From the UHGV virus genome UHGV-0094761: DNA of 42,420 nucleotides, one strand, 5' to 3'. Source of the stretch: a virus. Below are positions 50-14,268 of the stretch, piece after piece; position 1 is the first letter of the stretch, and each line of letters starts with the position of its first letter. The notes beneath the pieces are model-generated. The model ran no database searches. It was not told where the DNA came from and saw only the letters and a program-made list of their open reading frames with translations. The position numbers were made by a program, and so were the translations under genes.

Positions 50-1363
50 TTAACTTACTGATTTTAATAATCCTCCCGTACTGCTCTCGTGGCTATGGGG
101 CATCAATGGGGCAAAATCTGCCAGCTTCTGATTGAGCATTGCGATCTGCTCTGCGCTGCTGTCAGCCATCCATGCACCGTAAACATTGAACACCATCTGC
201 GCGCTCGCATGCCCCATCTGACTGGCAATAAAACTCGGGTTTGCACCAGCAGATAATGACCAGCACGCATAGGTATGTCGTGACTGGTACGCCTTTCTGT
301 GTCTGATCCCTGCGCGCTTTAGTGCCGCTTCCCAGGAGTCGCCTACTGAATCGACCCGGTAGATAAATCCGACCTGCTTACTGCGTCTGACCACATGCGG
401 GTTAAAGACGAATGTACACTCATGGTTCACCGAACGGCCATACTCACGTAACTGAACTTCAATGTGATGTTGCCTGCCCAGCCTTGTCATTTCAGCCTGA
501 TTTTTCAGGATACTGATTGCGGGCTGGATAAGATGCACCACTCGATCTGTGCTTGCCTCGGTTTTCGGTAGAGTGAACTCACCAAGTTTCGTATAATTAC
601 GCCTGACGGTAATTGTTCCCGCCTTCAGATCGATATCTTCCCAGGCCAGGGAGACCAGTTCCCCGTGACGCATTCCTGTGTACACTGCTAATGACCACAG
701 GTTTTTAGTCTGCTGATGCCGGCATGCATCTATCAGGCGAATAAATTCATCACGAGAAAGAGGATCTGGTTCTGCCCTGGCTTTTTTCAGAGGCTTAATT
801 CCCTCGAATGGGTTCACTTCTAAGTAACCGTGATCCGCAGCAAACTGAAACATTCCGGCCATTGTCGTCATGTAATAGTTCACAGTAACAACGCTTCGCC
901 CTTTTGCCGGGGATTTGTTTTTCGTCGGATTCTGGTAACCAGTTAGCAAATCTTTCCTGAGATACAGCAATTCCTCTTTGGTTACTGCTGAGACCAGGCG
1001 ATTACCTCCGATCCTCGGCACCATATTCCTTGCGACGGACTCATAGCGATTGAATGCGTTCGCGCAGATTTCCATCCGTTTCAGATCCAGCCACTTTTCT
1101 TCAAGTTCTTTTACTGTAATGTCTTTTTTACTTACACCAAAAGCCTTGAGGTTAGGGGAGTCAGGAAACTGGGTTGCATAATCAAAGGTTCCTGTGCGGA
1201 TGGCAAAACATACTGATGTCCGCAGTTCCCCGGCTATCTTCCTGTTCTTAGCGGTGTCAGGGACACCGAGACTTTCCCTGACACGCTTACCTTTAAAATT
1301 AAACCAGATGCGTAATGTGCCGCCGTGGTTTTCGACGCCTGTTGGATATGTGACTTTATCCAT
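50..1363 (-). CDS. int: Tyrosine-type site-specific integrase (phage integrase)
   Basis: 437-aa ORF; C-terminal catalytic region with the R..HxxR..Y pattern (RHTYACW...MGHAS...VYGAW); GGAGG RBS 8 nt upstream of ATG at 1363; sits at the prophage end next to xis. Confidence 0.9.
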   Translation of the reverse strand: MDKVTYPTGVENHGGTLRIWFNFKGKRVRESLGVPDTAKNRKIAGELRTSVCFAIRTGTFDYATQFPDSPNLKAFGVSKKDITVKELEEKWLDLKRMEICANAFNRYESVARNMVPRIGGNRLVSAVTKEELLYLRKDLLTGYQNPTKNKSPAKGRSVVTVNYYMTTMAGMFQFAADHGYLEVNPFEGIKPLKKARAEPDPLSRDEFIRLIDACRHQQTKNLWSLAVYTGMRHGELVSLAWEDIDLKAGTITVRRNYTKLGEFTLPKTEASTDRVVHLIQPAISILKNQAEMTRLGRQHHIEVQLREYGRSVNHECTFVFNPHVVRRSKQVGFIYRVDSVGDSWEAALKRAGIRHRKAYQSRHTYACWSLSAGANPSFIASQMGHASAQMVFNVYGAWMADSSAEQIAMLNQKLADFAPLMPHSHESSTGGLLKSVS

Positions 1364-2277: not shown

Positions 2278-3073
2278 TCTCCTGCTGCGGTGCTGCTGCG
2301 AAATGCTCGACACCTTTATCCCAAATAGCTTTGATGGTCGTCCAGGTGACAGGAACGGTAATTTCAAGCCTTCCGCTACCGTCACATGTTTCGCACTCAT
2401 CATCACCAAAACACTCCGGGAAGTTTATAGACTTCGTTTCTGAAAACTCACCGGATAGCACGCCCTTAGCGCCGTTCTCAGCGGTTAGCTTCTTCGGCAC
2501 TAGTACGTAACCATCCGGAATCACCGAAGAGTTGCCAGCCTGTAGCATGGCGACGCGGCTATCATGTCCCAGCATCGCTTTAAACTCTGCTATCCCTGCA
2601 TCGTGCTCTGCTCGCTGTTCCGGAGTCATAGCTTCCAGTTCGGCGTAGTAGTCAGCGCGACGGCGCAATGCGTCCAGCATGCACTGAGTGCGAACGCCCT
2701 TACCGAATTTAAGACCAGGCTCCAGATGTACAGGGCACGGCAACGTTTCCGGCACTACCTGCGCTGGCTGAGGGGCGGCGTAGAGTGGAGTCTCTGTGAT
2801 TTCGTACTCATTGATGTCTTCCTGAGACCAGTTGCCAAATCTGGTATCCAGGCTAAAACGCGCATCAGCGTGAAGCTTATCTTTGTACATGTACGCTACA
2901 GGCTCTGCGCCAATCGCTGCAATAGCCCCAGCAATCACCTTCACAGCATCAGACATTGCGTAGCCGAGATTACCGCCGTCGCTTTGTGCTGCTGCTTTGC
3001 TGAGTATTTCTCTTATCTGGTGCAGGCGATCGAGTGATACAGGACCGTGCGCCGGGTGGTTGTTAGTTGTCAT
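2270..3073 (-). CDS. Hypothetical phage early protein (267 aa, Cys-rich C-terminus CETCDGSG)
   Basis: Long ORF with protein-like composition; start ATG overlaps the HNH gene stop (ATGA); part of a coupled leftward operon. Confidence 0.6.
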   Translation of the reverse strand: MTTNNHPAHGPVSLDRLHQIREILSKAAAQSDGGNLGYAMSDAVKVIAGAIAAIGAEPVAYMYKDKLHADARFSLDTRFGNWSQEDINEYEITETPLYAAPQPAQVVPETLPCPVHLEPGLKFGKGVRTQCMLDALRRRADYYAELEAMTPEQRAEHDAGIAEFKAMLGHDSRVAMLQAGNSSVIPDGYVLVPKKLTAENGAKGVLSGEFSETKSINFPECFGDDECETCDGSGRLEITVPVTWTTIKAIWDKGVEHFAAAPQQENV

Positions 3074-3492
3074 GCCGTAGCCCCTTCTTGATATTTTTCG
3101 AACCAGAACACAACCGGCTTTTCGACTACTTCAACCAGGCCAAATCGTTCAGCGGTGCGGAAGTTGACACTGCTCTTGCGCCCGCGCTCAACCTGTAGAG
3201 ATATTTGTTTTCTGAACATCTCCAGCGAGTAAGAGGTTTTGAACAAGTTGCAGGGAGCGCATGCCGGAAACTGATTTTCCAGGGTATCAGCGTAGATATT
3301 CCGCACCTCTCCAGTAGCTTTGAGCTTGAAAATGCCTTTTTCAGCGGCCTTCATATCCTGCTCAGATATTCTCGCCACTGGCTGCACATGGTCAGCATGC
3401 CAGCCTTTCTCTGGTAGTTCACAGCCACAATAAGCACAGCGACCGCCGAACTTCATGCGCAACTCTGCACGTTGTTTTTTCGTCAGCGCCAT
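3070..3492 (-). CDS. HNH endonuclease
   Basis: 140 aa; CAYCGC...HADHVQP...CAPCN zinc-finger/HNH pattern; AAGGGGGAG RBS upstream of ATG at 3492. Confidence 0.8.
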   Translation of the reverse strand: MALTKKQRAELRMKFGGRCAYCGCELPEKGWHADHVQPVARISEQDMKAAEKGIFKLKATGEVRNIYADTLENQFPACAPCNLFKTSYSLEMFRKQISLQVERGRKSSVNFRTAERFGLVEVVEKPVVFWFEKYQEGATA

Positions 3493-4634: not shown

Positions 4635-4798
4635 GGCGTTTTACCTTTACGTTCCTGTTCCAGTTGCACCAGAGACTCTTTTAATGCTGCGAACGTAGCC
4701 TCCAGTCTGGTGGCGACTTCGCGCATAAGCGGTGCATGCTTTGGTGGCAATTCAGCAACTGAGGCAAAAGCCTCCGCTACGAGTTCTTTTACCTTCAT
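4631..4798 (-). CDS. Small hypothetical protein (55 aa), absent from the ORF track
   Basis: Manual translation MKVKELVAEAFASVAELPPKHAPLMREVATRLEATFAALKESLVQLEQERKGKTP; start ATG overlaps the HD gene stop (ATGA at 4795-4798) and its stop overlaps the next start (ATGA at 4631-4634). Confidence 0.4.
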   Translation of the reverse strand: MKVKELVAEAFASVAELPPKHAPLMREVATRLEATFAALKESLVQLEQERKGKTP

Positions 4799-5334
4799 GC
4801 GGCGCATTGGCGCAGCTCCACCAGTTCGTTAAAGCGATTCATGAACAGGCCATAGGCTTGACCAGGACGGAGAGGGATAACTTGAACGAGATCAGAGCAG
4901 GGAATACCTTCGAGAATTTCCCACTTCGAACCGTCATCGATTTCCAGATCACGGCGCTCGGTGGCTAACATGGTGAGATCGGCATATTTCACGACAGCAG
5001 CTTGTTCAAGAGAGATACCGAATTTAAAGCGGATAAGACCATCAACATAAGTTTCCATGCGTTGGTAGTCTGGTAACAGGGCTTTGAGCGGGGCAGGAAT
5101 ATCCTGGCAATATGCCTCCGCAGCATCGTGCATTAGCGCTTCAAAGGCGAACTCTGGCGGCACAATCTGGCTTACAAGCACAGAGTGCTGGGCCACGCTG
5201 TAGAACTCTGGCAGATGCCCAGCAAATCGACAGATGTTGGAAAGAGCAGTCGCGATATCCTCAACATCGATATCGTCGATAGTGGCGGTAATGTAGTTAA
5301 ATTTTTTACCGGATAATGTTTGAATGTAGCTCAT
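4795..5334 (-). CDS. HD-domain phosphohydrolase (YfbR/YfdR-like 5'-deoxynucleotidase family)
   Basis: H..HD metal-binding pattern (AQHSVLVSQ...MHDAAEAY); start at the second in-frame ATG (5334), which has a GGAG RBS. Confidence 0.75.
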   Translation of the reverse strand: MSYIQTLSGKKFNYITATIDDIDVEDIATALSNICRFAGHLPEFYSVAQHSVLVSQIVPPEFAFEALMHDAAEAYCQDIPAPLKALLPDYQRMETYVDGLIRFKFGISLEQAAVVKYADLTMLATERRDLEIDDGSKWEILEGIPCSDLVQVIPLRPGQAYGLFMNRFNELVELRQCAA

Positions 5335-5427
5335 GGTTTTCTCCATATTGGCGCGCTGCACCGCGCAGATTTTGGTTGCACGAATCCCTCGCCGGTTGGC
5401 GATAATTAATGGAATTACGCTTCAATA

Positions 5428-5462: not shown

Positions 5463-6290
5463 TTAGGCTTTAAAGTTACCGATGAAAGTTTCCACTGATT
5501 CACCTTCGAACTTGCTGATCAGCAAATCGCGGAATTCGTTGGCGATCGCTTCTTCCTGGGCTTCAAGTTGGACAATGCGCAGAACAAAGCAGGGTTCATC
5601 GCTGGTCAGCAGGCTGTTACGCATGCTAAAGCGGCGTTCACCCAGACCTTCATACGGCACACATTTGAACTCGAACGCCACAGGCATTACGTCTTTGCTG
5701 CTTGCTTCAACGCTTTGCATCAGCGATTTTGTACCAGCGAAATCACCAGTTTCATGGTCCTGCTGGGTTGCTTGCTGAATAGTGATACGACGCACAGCCT
5801 GAGCCGCCTGGGAAATCTGCATCGTATTGCCATCAGCATCAAACGCCAGAAGGTAATCGCTCCAGTCTTCCAGCCATTCGGCGATTTGCTTTTGCTTCAG
5901 GCGTTGACCATCGATCTGCAGTAGCGCGCGGAACGGGGCGGTTTTCTTCAGGGTGATTGAAGCAACGTTATCGGCGTGACCGGGATTATCCAGGGTGCCG
6001 ATGTTGAACACTGAACGGGCGGTCATGTTGTCAGCGTCAATAAAGCAACGAGCTGGCTCACTGTCGCTGGCGTAACCTTTAGAATAACGTGCGAAGTCGT
6101 CAATACTGGTTGTGGTCATTGCGCCACGAAAGCGGAAACGCTCCAGAGAAAAGCGCTCGAGGCTTTCAATGCCAGTACCCTCTGGCAGTAATGCGGTCGG
6201 GCAAGCCAGGCCATGAATATCATTCAGGTGATAACCTGAAAGAACCAGGTCTTTGACCTGCTTGAAGGTACCGCTGTCTAACTGAGACAT
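5463..6290 (-). CDS. YfdQ-like protein (DUF2303-like, CPS-53-type prophage early protein)
   Basis: 275-aa ORF with AAGGAA RBS; family assignment is from memory of the CPS-53 yfdP-yfdQ-yfdR gene order, which matches the YfdP-like / this gene / HD-protein order here. Confidence 0.6.
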   Translation of the reverse strand: MSQLDSGTFKQVKDLVLSGYHLNDIHGLACPTALLPEGTGIESLERFSLERFRFRGAMTTTSIDDFARYSKGYASDSEPARCFIDADNMTARSVFNIGTLDNPGHADNVASITLKKTAPFRALLQIDGQRLKQKQIAEWLEDWSDYLLAFDADGNTMQISQAAQAVRRITIQQATQQDHETGDFAGTKSLMQSVEASSKDVMPVAFEFKCVPYEGLGERRFSMRNSLLTSDEPCFVLRIVQLEAQEEAIANEFRDLLISKFEGESVETFIGNFKA

Positions 6291-6346
6291 AAAAATTCCT
6301 TATTAACTGATGATCAAAGTGGTATCAGTGAGTTTGTTGTTGCGGA

Positions 6347-6718
6347 TCACTGAGCCGCTTTAAGCTTTCCATCCACCGCGCCAGTGATCCCGAACAGCTG
6401 ACCCTGATCTTCCTGCAGGATGGTTAGCTTCCCGCCTTTGTTGACCCACATCGGGGTTTCGGTTGTGTCCTCTTCTGAGGCTTTACCACGCGGTGTTGGG
6501 GTGCTGTAGTTCAGCTTGTGCTTGATCTTGACGCGCTTCTCTTCAACGGAATTACCCATGCGCTCAAAATCAAATGTGAGGACTACTTTGCCTTTGTTGC
6601 CGTTGTTCAGAACGCCAAGCGCGGTGGTATTAAGTGCTGCCGCGATTTTGTTCATGAACACGCCAGCATCCAGTTCGCCAAGAAAATCTGGCACTACGGT
6701 CATGCGGTCATTACTCAT
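6347..6718 (-). CDS. Hypothetical protein (YfdP-like position), about 123 aa
   Basis: Start placed at the internal ATG at 6718 (MSNDRMTVVP...) with a GAGGG RBS; the N-terminal 61 residues of the track ORF are not protein-like. Confidence 0.5.
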   Translation of the reverse strand: MSNDRMTVVPDFLGELDAGVFMNKIAAALNTTALGVLNNGNKGKVVLTFDFERMGNSVEEKRVKIKHKLNYSTPTPRGKASEEDTTETPMWVNKGGKLTILQEDQGQLFGITGAVDGKLKAAQ

Positions 6719-7767
6719 GGTTTTACCCTCGTTAAGGCGGCTGCCACCGCCGAACTTTCTCCATACACAACAGAGAAGGGCACCTGCATTTGTCGGCGAC
6801 TGCAATCGCCATCCTCTTGCCCGGGTGGATTGGGTTATGAGCCCGTCGCCCGGTGATGCCCTTTTCTGTTGCGTAAAAAGGGCGGTACCGAGATAGAACA
6901 TTATCTTCGTCCCCCTTGCATAAGGTTGAAGACCCTGGTACCGCCAAGACTACACACAGCAATACTGGAACTACGGTTATCACGGTCCTAAGCGTGATTT
7001 GGTTGTGGTTGCTGGTGCTGAACTCCAGCTCAGTGGCGCGGTGTTTCAATATCGTAACCGCCCGTTCCATCCGCGTTCGATCAGTCCGTATGTTCGCTTA
7101 GAACGTTTCGCCTGCTTATCTTTTCTCAACCGTTTGACGGTCAGCCCCGCCATTTACCACAACGAAGAGAGCACTGCCGGTGTTCGAATCGAACGAACCT
7201 TTTCCCTGCCCAACCCTCCCAACTGAATGGGACTGTCTGGAATCGAACCAGCACTTATGCCTTGCTCGTCAATGCTCTCGTCGTTGCGCCCTGAAAAAGG
7301 CTGGCGGTTACCGGACAAGTGGGAAAACACCGGGCCGCCAGAACAGGGAGTTACTTGTTATTGCTTTAGCCTGCTTTTAACCACATCAGGCGCGGTGGTA
7401 GGTATCTTCGGGCGGGGCGCTGGCGACCAACCAGCTACAACCCCTACGGTATTTACACTCCACGCCGTGGGTTAACGGCTCCGTATCGTGGCTGAGTTTC
7501 TGTTGCTGGTGGTCAAGCCAGCTTCGCAACCCCTCCCGAAGACACCTGTCAACGAATCATCCGGTTATTCATATGCCACCGGCGGCTACTTCGTGGGCGT
7601 CCTGCCTGTTCGCTGTTGATGAATTAAATATACCTGTGAGTAATTTTTGTGTAAATACCTATTGGTATATTTTTATTTACCTTAATGGCAACTACTTGCT
7701 TTTAATTGGATTTTATTTAAGTAGGTGATGCGTGTTATGCTCAAAAAAACACCAGAAAGGGCTTGGT

Positions 7768-7974
7768 ATGGAACGTGACGAACTGGAAGAAGACCGTGCG
7801 GCATTCATAGCTGGCGAGATTGGCGGCGCAGTTGTCGAATTGATAATCGGCGGAGTAGTGATTGACCGTGATGCGATCGTCGATTGTTTGGAAAGAAAAC
7901 GACGTGCGGTGGGCAACGTGATCCACAAAGGTGTTCTGCGAGACGCCGCTGCTATGGTGAGAAAAGGGCAGTAA
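7768..7974 (+). CDS. Small hypothetical protein (68 aa) convergent with cI
   Basis: ATG at 7768 with AAAGGG RBS; MERDELEEDRAAFIAGEIGG...; ends at the hairpin shared with cI. Confidence 0.4.
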   Translation: MERDELEEDRAAFIAGEIGGAVVELIIGGVVIDRDAIVDCLERKRRAVGNVIHKGVLRDAAAMVRKGQ

Positions 7975-7997
7975 AAACCCGGCTCAGTGGCCGGGTT
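7973..7997 (-). terminator. Rho-independent terminator downstream of cI
   Basis: Stem CCCGGC / GCCGGG (7978-7983 / 7990-7995) with a 6-nt loop, followed on the minus strand by a 5-U run (7973-7977). Confidence 0.6.
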
Positions 7998-8048
7998 AGA
8001 TGTTATTTCATTAAGAGTTAGGTCTGTTCAACTATCCAAAAATAGCAG

Positions 8049-8759
8049 TTACAGTTTATTGTAAGCTATTGATTCATGGAGCAGAGCTTTACCCATGATA
8101 TACAGTTGATCCTGATTTTCTTCAGTTATATACCAGTCTTTGTACACTGGATTATCGGACAGGACTGCAAGCTGCAAGCCCTGCATTTGTAATCGCTTCA
8201 CGTGGAAGTGTTGTCCGAAAACGAACGCATAAACACCGTCCACCTTGAAATTTCTTATCGAAATATCGAAAAACAACCTGTCACCAGACTGGATGGTTGG
8301 GCACATGCTGTCGCCATCTACAGTCATTACTTTAACATCATCCTGAGAACGATTCCCGAAGAGTGAACGAGCGTGCTCAGTAGTGAACTCAATAGCGTGT
8401 AGAACCTCAACAAACTCAGAAATCATGAAAGACCCTGGACCTGCGCTCACAGTAAGATCGAGAACTTCTACACGATAAGTGTCGATATTGCGGGCGGGTA
8501 CATCAATATCCATATTTGAGGTTGGGCCAAGACCATCCAACCATCCTCTGCTGATTTTCAAAGCATCTTCGATCTGCCGAGCCGCTTGCTCACCAATATT
8601 CCGCTTATTAGGTTTACCAACAGGGTAAAGCATCCGAGAGACAACAGTCGGATCAAGCCCTGCATTTTCAGCAAACTCTTTCTGGGTTTTATAGCGAGTT
8701 ACCAACTCCTGAAGTTTGAGGCGTCGTAACTCGAAGATGTCAGGCGATTCAGTTTTCAT
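8049..8759 (-). CDS. cI: CI-like repressor (HTH_XRE N-terminal domain plus LexA/S24-like autocleavage domain)
   Basis: 236 aa; N-terminal HTH (KTQKEFAENAGLDPTVVSRM), C-terminal S24 peptidase-like region (VDGDSM...K in FHVKRL); divergent from cro across an operator region. Confidence 0.85.
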   Translation of the reverse strand: MKTESPDIFELRRLKLQELVTRYKTQKEFAENAGLDPTVVSRMLYPVGKPNKRNIGEQAARQIEDALKISRGWLDGLGPTSNMDIDVPARNIDTYRVEVLDLTVSAGPGSFMISEFVEVLHAIEFTTEHARSLFGNRSQDDVKVMTVDGDSMCPTIQSGDRLFFDISIRNFKVDGVYAFVFGQHFHVKRLQMQGLQLAVLSDNPVYKDWYITEENQDQLYIMGKALLHESIAYNKL

Positions 8760-8858
8760 AATTCCATCTTACTTAAATTTACTTCAAGGTAAATGACCTG
8801 TGAGTATTGACATGTATTTACTTAAAGATATATTTAATTTCCAAACATAGGAGGCGTG
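8760..8858. promoter_or_regulatory. Immunity-region operator and divergent promoter region (OR/PR/PRM-like)
   Basis: Rightward promoter TTGACA (8807-8812), 16-17 nt spacer, TATATT (about 8829-8834); 18-bp palindrome ATTTAC-TTCAAG-GTAAAT (8777-8794) and repeated TTACTTAAA / ATTTAC half-sites. Confidence 0.6.
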
Positions 8859-12196: not shown

Positions 12197-12579
12197 AACT
12201 GGTCCTGCCTTTTCCTCCGAGCGTGAATACTTACTGGCGCGCCCCTAACAAGGGGCCGCTGGCCGGTCGTCACCTCATTAGCGCTGATGGCCGTAAATAC
12301 CAAAGCGCTGCCTGCGTGGCGATCATTGAGCAATTACGACGTCTCCCGAAGCCATCGACTGAACTGGCAGCGGTAGAAATCACTCTGTACCCGCCGGATG
12401 CGCGCCGCCGGGATATCGATAATTACAACAAAGCCCTGTTTGACGCGCTGACGCATGCGGGTGTCTGGGAAGACGACAGCCAGATTAAGCGCATGCTGGT
12501 GGAATGGGGACCCGTTGTGCCGAAAGGTCGGGTAGAGATAACGATCAGCAGATATGAACCGGCGGGTGCAGCCGCCTGA
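12193..12579 (+). CDS. rusA: RusA-type Holliday junction resolvase
   Basis: 128 aa; MKLVLPFPPSVNTYW...DIDNYNKALFDALTHAGVWEDDSQI is the characteristic RusA signature; GTG start overlaps the upstream stop (GTGA) with a GGGAGAGG RBS. Confidence 0.85.
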   Translation: MKLVLPFPPSVNTYWRAPNKGPLAGRHLISADGRKYQSAACVAIIEQLRRLPKPSTELAAVEITLYPPDARRRDIDNYNKALFDALTHAGVWEDDSQIKRMLVEWGPVVPKGRVEITISRYEPAGAAA

Positions 12580-12592
12580 TATGGAGAAAAGT

Positions 12593-13276
12593 ATGAGCCA
12601 GTTAGCAACAACAGCATTAACCATGTCCAGCAGCGATATTGCTGAGCTGGTGGAATCACGACATGACCATGTTAAACGGTCCATTGAACGCCTGGCAGAG
12701 CGCGGTGTTATTGAACTCCCCCCAATGGGGGAAGTTAAAAATCACCTCAATCAGTCGGTATCGGTTTATCTGATAGGGAAGCGGGACAGTTATATCGTTG
12801 TCGCGCAGCTGTCGCCGGAGTTTACCGCACGTCTGGTTGATCGCTGGCAGGAGCTTGAGCAGGCACAGCAGCAGACGATTCCTCAATCATTCTCTGAAGC
12901 CCTACGTCTTGCAGCTGACCTTGCAGAACAAAAACAGCAGTTGACTAACGAACTGGCTGCCGCGGCGCCGAAGGTAGCGTTTGTTGATCGGTACTGTACA
13001 GCCAGTGGGTCAATGTCATTCCGTCAGGTGGCAAAACTGCTTAAGGCCAAAGAGCCAGATCTGCGGTTATTCCTCCTTGAGAACGACATCATGTATCGCC
13101 TTGGCGGAACGATGACCCCACGGCATCAGCATATTGATGCGGGCCGTTTTGAAGTGAAAACCGGTACATCCGTAACCTCAAATCATGCATTCAGCCAGGC
13201 ACGATTCACGGCGAAAGGCGTGCGCTGGATTGGTGGACTGTGGGCAGAACACATTGCCAGGGGGCAGGTCGCGTGA
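12593..13276 (+). CDS. Rha-family phage regulatory protein with C-terminal KilAC/ANT antirepressor domain
   Basis: N-terminal Rha-like region (MSSSDIAELVESRHDHVKRSIERL) and C-terminal KilAC-like region (AFVDRYCTASG...FEVK); start at ATG 12593 with a GGAG RBS. Confidence 0.7.
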   Translation: MSQLATTALTMSSSDIAELVESRHDHVKRSIERLAERGVIELPPMGEVKNHLNQSVSVYLIGKRDSYIVVAQLSPEFTARLVDRWQELEQAQQQTIPQSFSEALRLAADLAEQKQQLTNELAAAAPKVAFVDRYCTASGSMSFRQVAKLLKAKEPDLRLFLLENDIMYRLGGTMTPRHQHIDAGRFEVKTGTSVTSNHAFSQARFTAKGVRWIGGLWAEHIARGQVA

Positions 13277-14268
13277 GAGCTCTGCTTACCCCCGAGATCG
13301 CCCATCGTATGGGGATTGTGCTGTTCCGTCCCGGTGCGGAACTGATGCACCTCTTCATGCGTGGTCGCGTTCTGCTCGAGCCTGAACCAGAAGAAATGGC
13401 GTCATTCAGTACCGGGGCTGTTCCGGCAGCCATTCAGCCGCTGGCTGATGATCCGGTAATGCGTCAGGTCTTCGAGAATGAGAGGGTTATTCAGCGTGCC
13501 GGTGGGCTTCCTTCCCTTGAGCAATGGTTGAGTAATCGGTTTGAATGCCAGTGGCCACATTCAACGTGGCACGACAAGAACTTCACAACAATGCGGCACC
13601 CACCAGGAAGCATTCGCCTGTGCTGGCATTGCGATCACACTTTGTCGGGGCAGCATACCGAACAGCTTGCAGGTATAGCGGCCGGAAACCTGGTATCCTG
13701 GATTCTGGAAGTCATTCGGCGTGATTCTGGTTTTCCCGAGTCTCATATCCTGACGCTTCCGGAACTGTGCTGGTGGATGGTCAGAAACGACCTGGCTGAT
13801 GTTATTCCGGAAAGCGTTGCGCACAAAGGGCTGCGCCTTCCGGATGAGAAGATCCGTTCTGTCATGAGGGAAAGCGACATAGTGCCTTCCTCGTCAGCAA
13901 CCAGACTCGTGCAGGAGAAGGCGAAGAAGATCCTCACGCTCTCTGTTGATCCGGAGTCGCCAGAGTCTTTTATGCTCAGGCCAAAACGTCGCCGCTGGAT
14001 AAATGAGACGTACACCCGCTGGGTTAAAACACAGCCCTGTGAGTGTTGCCGACGGCCAGCAGATGATCCGCACCATATCGTAGGGCACGGTATGGGGGGG
14101 ACAGCAACAAAAGCCCATGATCTCTTCGTGATCCCTCTGTGCAGAGAGTGCCACGATGAGTTACACGCCGATGTACTGGCATTCGAGCAGAAGCATGGTA
14201 CGCAGCTTGAGCTGCTACTGCGTTTTATGGATCGGGCGCTGGCGATCGGCGTAATTGCGAAAGCTTAA
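13273..14268 (+). CDS. DUF968-like phage protein (YdfU-like)
   Basis: About 330-aa protein with a C-terminal Cys/His cluster (CECCRRPADDPHHIVGHG...CRECHDELH); GTG at 13273 overlaps the Rha stop; alternative starts at 13240 or 13309. Confidence 0.55.
   Translation: MRALLTPEIAHRMGIVLFRPGAELMHLFMRGRVLLEPEPEEMASFSTGAVPAAIQPLADDPVMRQVFENERVIQRAGGLPSLEQWLSNRFECQWPHSTWHDKNFTTMRHPPGSIRLCWHCDHTLSGQHTEQLAGIAAGNLVSWILEVIRRDSGFPESHILTLPELCWWMVRNDLADVIPESVAHKGLRLPDEKIRSVMRESDIVPSSSATRLVQEKAKKILTLSVDPESPESFMLRPKRRRWINETYTRWVKTQPCECCRRPADDPHHIVGHGMGGTATKAHDLFVIPLCRECHDELHADVLAFEQKHGTQLELLLRFMDRALAIGVIAKA

Follow-up and report, generated by a model that had tools for sequence, protein, structure and literature searches.

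The closest described relatives of the prophage considered here are the phages ST64B, phiNP, and LLS. No homolog of the antiterminator N was found in the LLS genome (2025), for which a put-type mechanism was offered as a guess, and no early antiterminator is known for LLS, ST64B, or phiNP, all of which lack N (PMC12315714). UHGV virus genome UHGV-0094761 (42,420 nt, the window in what follows) is a lambdoid prophage with an integrase gene (50..1363, minus strand) and an exonuclease gene at its left end. Between its first early-left gene and the immunity region lies about 1 kb of DNA (6719–7767) in which an early-left promoter (PL) and an N-type antiterminator would be expected. An annotation made from the bare sequence (the original prediction) saw no credible open reading frame (ORF) there and proposed a structured RNA, possibly put-like, or a decayed gene.

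The minus strand from 7620 to 6719 is probably best understood as an attenuating, untranslated leader of the PL transcript, assembled as a mosaic of independently folding non-coding RNA modules. The non-coding, structured, and modular nature of the leader is established by the comparisons described below, and a decayed gene, a tRNA, a nut site, and membership in the put family are all rejected.

A mosaic RNA leader downstream of PL

A sigma-70-like promoter was found on the minus strand at the place expected for PL (-35 TTTACA, 7655–7650; -10 TATATT, 7632–7627; 10/12 in a consensus scan). The sequence ACCTGTGAGTA occurs in the PL region (7632–7642) and again in the region of the early-right promoter, PR (8796–8806), and a 22-nt inverted match connects 7622–7643 at PL with 8818–8839 at PR. 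The promoter was assigned as PL because repeats of the PR region lie in its flanks, as expected for shared operators. Repeats of the type ATTTACTT..AGGTAAAT were also noted on the PR side, at 8777–8794 and 8816–8833. Transcription is inferred to start near 7620 on the minus strand; conservation among 124 relatives starts immediately 3′ of the variable promoter. Given the position of PL, the sequence from ~7620 down to the ATG at 6718 therefore constitutes a minus-strand leader of ~900 nt. The interval first singled out is thus structured leader only at 6719–7620; the rest, 7620–7767, is AT rich, holds the PL promoter/operator region up to a real plus-strand gene that begins at 7768, and lies outside the RNA.

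Relatives were collected as 80 IMG/VR loci found through the yfdP-like protein, followed by several hundred loci found with DNA patterns. Among them, leader segments may be kept, missing, or exchanged, and the same breakpoints recur near 7546, 7400, 7283, 7150, 6961, 6871, and 6783. Leader length varies from ~490 to ~1880 nt, and module order and strand are constant in more than 200 loci. One segment in E. coli relatives is replaced by a ClpX zinc-finger protein gene rather than aligning to it; this "ClpX C4-type zinc finger protein" gene sits on the PL-transcribed strand in the slot of the beta module in E. coli FAM21845 (locus L001, 3576–3941) and Nissle 1917 (L002, 3301–3666). Matches to parts of the region occur in 1534 of 5426 complete E. 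coli genomes. One IMG/VR contig, from a metagenome, carries the identical sequence across 6300–8100. The E. coli K-12 cryptic prophage CPS-53 has kept yfdP, yfdQ, and yfdR and has lost the whole leader, so K-12 data are uninformative here. Upstream of yfdP in CPS-53 (L402, 5248–5604), a run of GACGG.TCAGATTTT-type tandem repeats stands in the leader's place.

The evidence for RNA structure is carried mainly by three modules, beta, delta, and zeta2, each enclosed by a closing helix of 18–20 bp with one internal mismatch. Parts of the beta and delta alignments were gathered with sequence patterns that fix some columns. In 50 distinct copies of the beta subtype present in the window, 95.1% of helix cells were paired, compared with 31%–51% when the partners were slid; the corresponding values were 91.8% versus 38%–53% for 74 distinct copies of delta and 98.6% versus 40%–57% for 56 distinct copies of zeta2. 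Both sides had changed in 14 pairs of beta, 21 of the 36 pairs of delta, and 6 pairs of zeta2. None of 500 shuffles reached the values observed for delta; the shuffle control ignores shared ancestry, for which the slid-partner control accounts. Cells with G-U outnumber those with A-C in the helices of all three modules (127/18 in delta, 62/26 in beta, and 173/6 in zeta2), and this excess indicates that pairing is selected on the minus-strand RNA rather than on DNA or the other strand. Fold z-scores for the minus strand were −5.95 for beta, −5.5 for zeta2, −4.1 for delta, −2.0 for zeta1, and −0.9 for alpha. Hundreds of prophages carry these sequences with compensatory base changes, which places the features beyond chance. 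Such changes in related prophages had been named as a check on the structured RNA proposal, and their presence in many helix pairs, together with the G-U excess, bears out a structured rather than a coding region.

The absence of a credible ORF was likewise upheld. ORFs in the region are short and in mixed frames, and a Pfam scan of ten of them gave no match at the family's own cutoff (best E 0.028, 14.5 bits against 25). The predicted richness in GC was also confirmed (0.52–0.57 within the region and 0.40–0.43 immediately to the right). One ORF is open in relatives (7154..7330, minus strand, 58 aa, overlapping delta); its start codon, N terminus, and amino acids are not kept where the helices of the delta RNA covary. 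A very basic 35-aa ORF, MAGLTVKRLRKDKQAKRSKRTYGLIERGWNGRLRY (7153..7046, minus strand), starts right after delta and overlaps epsilon. It has no clear ribosome-binding site, and a PHROGs scan, in which it was the only ORF of the region included, returned no match. In phage 15G its ATG is kept and its stop is not, and the identity of the two copies is what the 82% DNA identity predicts. Single-nucleotide insertions and deletions are common in zeta2 among relatives. No relative was found with an intact gene that aligns here with frameshifts, and the proposed decayed gene is thus not supported. A mini-ORF, MEKVRRWQPP-stop (6764..6732, minus strand), ends in Pro-Pro-stop and overlaps the zeta3 hairpin just before the yfdP-like start; it is probably not functional because its ATG is ACG throughout a subgroup of relatives. 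This mini-ORF and a second one inside alpha, MNNRMIR, were rejected as candidates, since start codons are lost in whole subgroups.

Structure and distribution of the modules

The leader begins with alpha (7546..7618, minus strand), a near-invariant 5′ element, CAGCGAACAGGCAGGACGCCCACGAAGUAGCCGCC...GGAUGAUUCG, with a hairpin CCGGU-GGCAUAUGAAUA-ACCGG. It is the most conserved part of the leader, represented by 124 distinct copies behind many unrelated promoter/operator and immunity types, and its conservation ends at ...GAUGAUUCGC. A 23-nt core gave 93 exact matches in ~75 species of Enterobacterales, distributed over Enterobacteriaceae, Erwiniaceae, Yersiniaceae, Pectobacteriaceae, and Morganellaceae, with very different content downstream. 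Covariation in alpha is confined to the single hairpin, in which three pairs show compensatory changes.

Beta (7399..7547, minus strand) consists of a closing helix, four internal hairpins, and a loop-loop pseudoknot. The 18-bp closing helix pairs 7547–7530 with 7416–7399 and includes one A-G mismatch. The long-range complement noticed originally, GGTATCTTCGGG (7401–7412) with CCCGAAGACACC (7535–7546), proved to be this helix; a repeat search returned it as two 25-nt arms (7393–7417 and 7530–7554) that are 80% complementary. The direct repeat, CCAGCTACAACCCCT (7431–7445) and CCAGCTTCGCAACCCCT (7518–7534), turned out to be a duplication inside beta (AGGGGUUG.AGCUGG), and the local hairpin GCTGG-CGACCAA-CCAGC lies at 7419–7435. 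All of the sequence motifs listed in the original prediction were recovered, to within 1–6 nt of the positions given there. The pseudoknot joins the loops of the first and last hairpins, UGACCA (7515–7510) with UGGUCG (7429–7424), and is 98% paired; one of its pairs is C-G in 27 sequences, U-A in 20, and U-G in 3. The beta family occurs in at least 119 IMG/VR contigs as two interior subtypes with the same closing helix. The second subtype has another interior with an analogous loop-loop pairing, UGAUUA/UAAUCA, or UGAUAA/UUAUC in two loci.

Gamma (7284..7400, minus strand; 41 distinct copies) resembles a small RNA (sRNA) unit. Its 5′ part may form a pseudoknot or a hairpin (ACCAC/GUGGU, GCCUG/CAGGC) and is followed by an A-rich unpaired segment, AAAGCAAUAACAAGUAACUCCCUGUU, a hairpin CUGGCGG..CCGCCAG (7341–7301) that resembles an intrinsic terminator, and the tract CCUUUUU (7300–7294). 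Gamma thus has the architecture expected of a terminator-derived, Hfq-type sRNA such as lambda PreS, namely a GC-rich hairpin with a U-tract and an A/U-rich unpaired part 5′ of it. The terminator stem is kept by compensatory changes, with CUGGCUG..CAGCCAG in loci L079 and L080 and in phage LLS, and in LLS gamma lies directly 3′ of the PL promoter. A likeness to the lambda boxB had been seen here. The sequence, GCCCTGAAAAAGG, is present at 7288–7300, but it belongs to the plus strand and so is not part of the PL transcript, which at these positions reads CCUUUUUCAGGGC, the U-tract after gamma's terminator hairpin. Neither a boxA nor a boxB was found in the leader on the PL-transcribed strand.

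A second unit of this kind, zeta1 (6872..6961, minus strand), is a long terminator-like hairpin that pairs GGCGGUACC (6945–6937) with GGUACCGCC (6889–6881) and is followed by CUUUUU (6880–6875). The gamma and zeta1 terminators have their 3′ sides and flanks in common, and many relatives join 7283 to 6871 with loss of exactly the DNA between, as recombination between repeats would produce. The closing helices of delta, zeta2, and smaller variants begin with (A)CRCAAC and end with GUUGUG(G), right after a terminator U-tract (7290–7283 and 6874–6867 in the window; also in L400 and L401). These common ends suggest that a unit composed of a terminator plus a closed module was duplicated along the leader.

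Delta (7150..7292, minus strand) is a tRNA-like RNA with a closing helix and a cloverleaf-like head. The 19-bp closing helix, P1, pairs 7288–7270 with 7176–7158. The T-arm-like motif noted originally, GGTTCGATTCC on the minus strand at 7239–7249, is a real, covarying hairpin (7251–7237, loop UUCGAUU), and a second T-arm-like hairpin with the same loop, which had gone unmentioned, lies at 7198–7182. The 42-kb window has two sites of GTTCGATTC, both in the T-arms of delta on the minus strand, where 0.48 would be expected by chance; 9 of 100 shuffles reached two. A variable hairpin, P3 (7232–7217), differs wholly in sequence between subgroups and always pairs. Pairing is near complete in P1 and the second T-arm and weaker at the ends of the first T-arm and P3. 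The junction strands are ACGAGCAAGGCA, UUGGGCAGGGAAAAG, and a near-invariant ACCGG; the search pattern dictated the first two in most of the 74 copies, and they are also unchanged in 20 copies found independently through the neighboring protein.

A covariance model of delta retrieved full-length copies in the window and in Yersinia similis. It also gave many weaker matches, which are limited to the closing helix (base CACAAC...GUUGUG) and enclose other interiors, an arrangement also seen in LLS and phage 15G. Delta is found immediately upstream of a genuine tRNA-Arg(UCU) gene in three epsilon15-like phages, where the sequence after delta and the tRNA forms a hairpin and a terminator with homology to the end of epsilon and to zeta1. 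This position beside tRNA-Arg, outside PL leaders, indicates that free-standing stable-RNA units can include delta. A promoter-like TTGACA ahead of delta was noted by eye in SPN9TCW; a consensus scan of that stretch called no promoter. In phage 15G (L401, ~1170–1500), a tRNA with anticodon CAU was observed ~200 nt upstream of a delta-helix module with another interior, followed by an epsilon homolog, and the T-arm of this tRNA resembles the first T-arm of delta. Delta itself was rejected as a true tRNA, as the second T-arm is 5 nt from the closing helix and there is no D or anticodon arm. A hammerhead reading of YUGACGAG...GAAA in delta was also rejected: the UG is in the covarying closing helix, the position before GAAA is unpaired with the G after CUGACGA, and the Rfam hammerhead models are silent.

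Epsilon (6962..7149, minus strand) is rare. It has hairpins GCGGU..ACCGC and AAUCACG-CUUAGGAC-CGUGAU (6999–6979), and the latter, 3′ hairpin recurs behind the tRNA of SPN9TCW. Epsilon was also considered as a possible gene remnant; its copies comprise near-identical ones and a single diverged homolog, at 82% identity, in phage 15G, and the homologs lie in unannotated or "hypothetical" sequence. Zeta2 (6765..6874, minus strand) is a three-way junction with a 20-bp closing helix, ACGCAACAGAAAAGGGCAUC with GGUGCCCUUCUCUGUUGUGU, that encloses a variable hairpin and an inner helix, CCGGG/CCCGG, around GGG-CUCAUAA-CCC. It invariably comes last among the modules that precede the first gene, which is yfdP-like or rdgC. 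The leader ends in zeta3 (6716..6764, minus strand), which, in an alignment of 64 relatives, comprises a hairpin GGCGG-UGGCAG-CCGCC (6751–6736), a Shine-Dalgarno sequence GAGGG (6730–6726), and the ATG.

The first early-left gene is yfdP/sb37-like (ATG at 6718–6716, minus strand) and was assigned to phrog_204. It belongs to a yfbR/yfdQ/yfdP-like trio (4795..5361, 5463..6290, and 6347..6718, all on the minus strand). On the other side of PL, the small plus-strand gene at 7768..7974 encodes a 68-aa protein of unknown function (phrog_3975), and the minus-strand gene at 8049..8759 encodes a CI/LexA-type repressor. The phrog_3975 gene has its own terminator-like hairpin (7976–7997) and lies between PL and the 3′ end of the repressor gene, toward which it points; this is the position at which lambda has rexAB and sieB-type accessory genes. 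To the right of the repressor are Cro-like, CII-like, and O-like genes, RusA, Ant, and a Q-like antiterminator. PHROGs scans of the early-left and early-right proteins recovered CI, Cro, CII-like, O-like, and Q-like proteins and no N-like, arginine-rich antiterminator. Two HNH endonuclease genes were also observed, phrog_2118 in the early-left region (3070–3492, minus strand) and phrog_96 in the early-right region (13240–14268, plus strand). On the PR side of relatives, isrK and the C4 antisense RNA, which there presumably control an antirepressor, were identified at 64–84 bits with Rfam (L003/ST64B, 4787–4975; L005, 4922–5110; L089, 4100–4288). No C4 or isrK match was found anywhere in the window, though an Ant gene is present (12554..13276).

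Possible roles of the leader RNAs

The arrangement of the modules suggests how an attenuating leader might work. Upon loss of the repressor, PL would produce large amounts of the module RNAs before any early-left protein is made. The gamma and zeta1 hairpins are predicted to stop part of the transcripts, which would yield short, sRNA-like products and would limit read-through to yfdP, yfdQ, and, farther along, xis and int. Beta, delta, and zeta2 would each fold independently by virtue of their long closing helices, which would probably be cut by a double-strand-specific RNase such as RNase III, releasing stable RNAs. Zeta2 could stay as a protective 5′ structure on the first mRNA, and alpha may act in cis on the transcription complex or on the fate of the RNA. 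Several observations weigh against this account. Alpha has little covariation and an ordinary folding energy (z −0.9), epsilon is not accounted for, and the U-tracts of gamma and zeta1 are only five U long. A simple terminator scan missed both hairpins, because their loops exceed the limit of the scan. The invariance of the pattern-fixed columns in the beta and delta alignments is by construction. Phage LLS has gamma and a zeta1-like terminator yet no alpha, so alpha cannot be a universal solution to read-through.

The last point also bears on an explanation we regard as unlikely, namely that alpha acts in cis as a processive antiterminator, by itself or together with beta, and, like HK022 put, folds as it leaves polymerase, binds the enzyme, and takes it past the gamma and zeta1 terminators. 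Alpha is ~70 nt long, lies at the transcript start upstream of two terminator-like hairpins, as putL does, and its near invariance in ~75 species and many immunity types fits contact with a conserved host machine. The phage has Q and no N was found, and a put-type mechanism has already been guessed for this phage group (PMC12315714). Set against this are the silence of a put covariance model on this leader and on five related leaders, the lack of a second copy downstream of PR, the single short covarying hairpin with its z-score of −0.9, the terminators of LLS in a leader without alpha, and the occurrence of beta and delta without alpha and of delta outside PL leaders altogether. A second alternative, which we consider about as unlikely, is that the modules are trans-acting RNAs for host take-over or counter-defense: delta would mimic tRNA as a decoy or sponge for factors that bind or cleave tRNA, beta would be a folded, protein-binding RNA, and gamma a base-pairing sRNA. 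The PL-proximal slot would then be an accessory-gene slot that happens to contain RNA genes. This slot would be the first to be transcribed after derepression, and its cassettes are exchangeable for a protein gene; delta travels with a tRNA gene in unrelated phages and has two canonical T-loops, beta has a compact, pseudoknotted fold, and lambda PreS is a precedent for gamma. The modules nevertheless have no known partner, target, or phenotype, the variable hairpin of delta has no anticodon-like 7-nt loop, and no defense or anti-defense gene was tied to the modules in the loci examined. A more speculative combination, to which we give limited credence, is that, in a very large group of N-less lambdoid prophages, the PL-proximal slot carries RNA cassettes instead of protein accessory genes. 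The trans-acting RNAs would then be beta (pseudoknotted, 150 nt) and delta (a double-T-arm tRNA mimic), released by cuts in helices of 18–20 bp and aimed at host machinery or tRNA-directed defenses, and alpha would be a new class of read-through element, unrelated to put, that lets polymerase pass the built-in terminators.

Explanations that deny the RNAs a function of their own fare worse. That the region encodes, or once encoded, protein is extremely improbable, whether as a decayed gene or as small proteins (the 58-aa ORF over delta, or the 35-aa ORF in epsilon as a minimal N-like arginine-rich peptide). The 58-aa frame is open in several relatives, and the 35-aa ORF has a high content of Lys and Arg and keeps its ATG in 15G. 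The absence of Pfam matches at cutoff and of a PHROGs match for the 35-aa ORF argues against coding, as does the lack of conservation of starts and N termini, with amino acids that vary freely where helices covary. So do the frequent 1-nt insertions and deletions in zeta2, the excess of G-U over A-C, a sign of selection at the RNA level, and the 35-aa ORF's unconserved stop and unremarkable identity to its 15G copy. It is also highly improbable that delta is a functionless, decaying tRNA remnant (a pseudo-tRNA pair or an att-site fragment) and the rest recombination linker DNA. The first T-arm does resemble the T-arms of tRNAs from the same locus type (15G, SPN9TCW), and module boundaries recur, as expected for recombination junctions. 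A remnant is hard to reconcile with 74 delta variants that maintain 21 covarying pairs and a 19-bp closing stem foreign to tRNA, with near-invariant junction strands (partly fixed by the search pattern), with the strand-specific G-U asymmetry, or with the silence of ARAGORN and the Rfam tRNA model.

In phages of the ST64B/phiNP/LLS type, the position of N and nutL is taken by conserved, modular, structured RNAs that are distinct from put and absent from Rfam, and these supply several well-supported new RNA motifs with clear boundaries. Phage LLS, which has gamma and zeta2 and can be grown on E. coli K-12, offers a tractable system. If the RNAs are antiterminators, processed regulators, or decoys, both early phage development and the induction of prophages in enteric pathogens would gain an RNA layer.

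Comparison with known RNAs and systems

The whole window gave no matches to Rfam 15 at gathering scores. With E up to 10, positions 6500–8100 gave matches at chance level only (E of at least 0.43), to a snoRNA, the isrJ terminator, ctRNA, DicF, and beta_tmRNA. Across 16 related loci, no leader was matched by Rfam, and the C4 and isrK RNAs on the PR side and the SPN9TCW tRNA were recovered. The suggestion of a tRNA or tmRNA fragment failed on both searches made for it: ARAGORN found no genes, and Rfam gave none, with beta_tmRNA at 8.7 bits against a threshold of 84. No description of these RNAs was returned by full-text literature searches with conserved module strings and topic words. The Pas sRNAs of EPEC were rejected as relatives, as they map near Q, lysis, and structural genes, and the mEp021-type N/nut system was rejected because it belongs to another phage group. 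A rough hand count of GGA motifs of the CsrA type showed no more than composition predicts.

For comparison with HK022, putL was reconstructed from the numbering in a cryo-EM paper (PMC9378689), and a covariance model was built from eight sequences (HK022 putL, putR, and six putL homologs) and searched without filters. The model scored HK022 putL at 99 bits, putR at 52, and CobraSix and HK639 at 89–96. It found nothing in 6700–7650 of the window, in the five related leaders, or on the PR side, and its best match elsewhere in the window was 7.9 bits (E 6.8). No second copy of any leader segment was found in the window, including downstream of PR. On these grounds the proposed put-like element is not a member of the put family. 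Like put, alpha measures ~70 nt, starts with the first nucleotides transcribed from PL in a lambdoid phage without N, and has terminator-like hairpins downstream. It differs in being single copy, in giving no match to the put model, and in lacking two long stems supported by covariation, and HK022 has no counterpart to the remaining ~800 nt of modules.

The lambda N leader is cut by RNase III. The lambda PL leader (nutL and an RNase III-sensitive stem before N) resembles the window leader as a long, structured, untranslated stretch from PL to the first gene in which helix processing is plausible; the window leader, however, has no N-like gene and no boxA or boxB on the transcribed strand, is four times longer, and is modular. 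Lambda also makes an Hfq-bound sRNA, PreS/LPR1, at the terminator tL2a in the PL operon (doi 10.1101/2024.10.31.621285). Gamma and zeta1 have the same layout as PreS/LPR1 and DicF of the Qin prophage, an A/U-rich single strand followed by a GC-rich hairpin and a U-tract in an early operon, but there is no homology. PreS, whose sequence is unrelated, was accordingly rejected as a relative of gamma and kept as an analog, and zeta1 scored 16.6 bits with the DicF model (RF00039; threshold 48, E 1.7) and is not a member.

Purine riboswitch aptamers are junction RNAs held together by loop-loop contacts. Beta is similar in architecture only: its closing helix leads into a junction of several helices, and the loops of two of its hairpins pair and covary. 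It has four hairpins instead of two, and its 18-bp helix is far too stable for a switching P1; the window gave no riboswitch match in Rfam, and no ligand or expression platform is evident for beta. Delta differs from YrlA (a Y RNA) and from tRNA in having two T-arms and no equivalents of the D-arm or anticodon arm, and Rfam gave no YrlA match at E up to 10. No Ro/Rsr protein was seen among 20 window proteins scanned against PHROGs, although no search was aimed at rsr. In architecture delta is similar to YrlA all the same: it has a long end-to-end stem and a head with T-loop hairpins and can adjoin tRNA genes. The tRNA cluster of phage T4 holds stable RNAs, to which delta can be likened as a tRNA-like, non-coding RNA.

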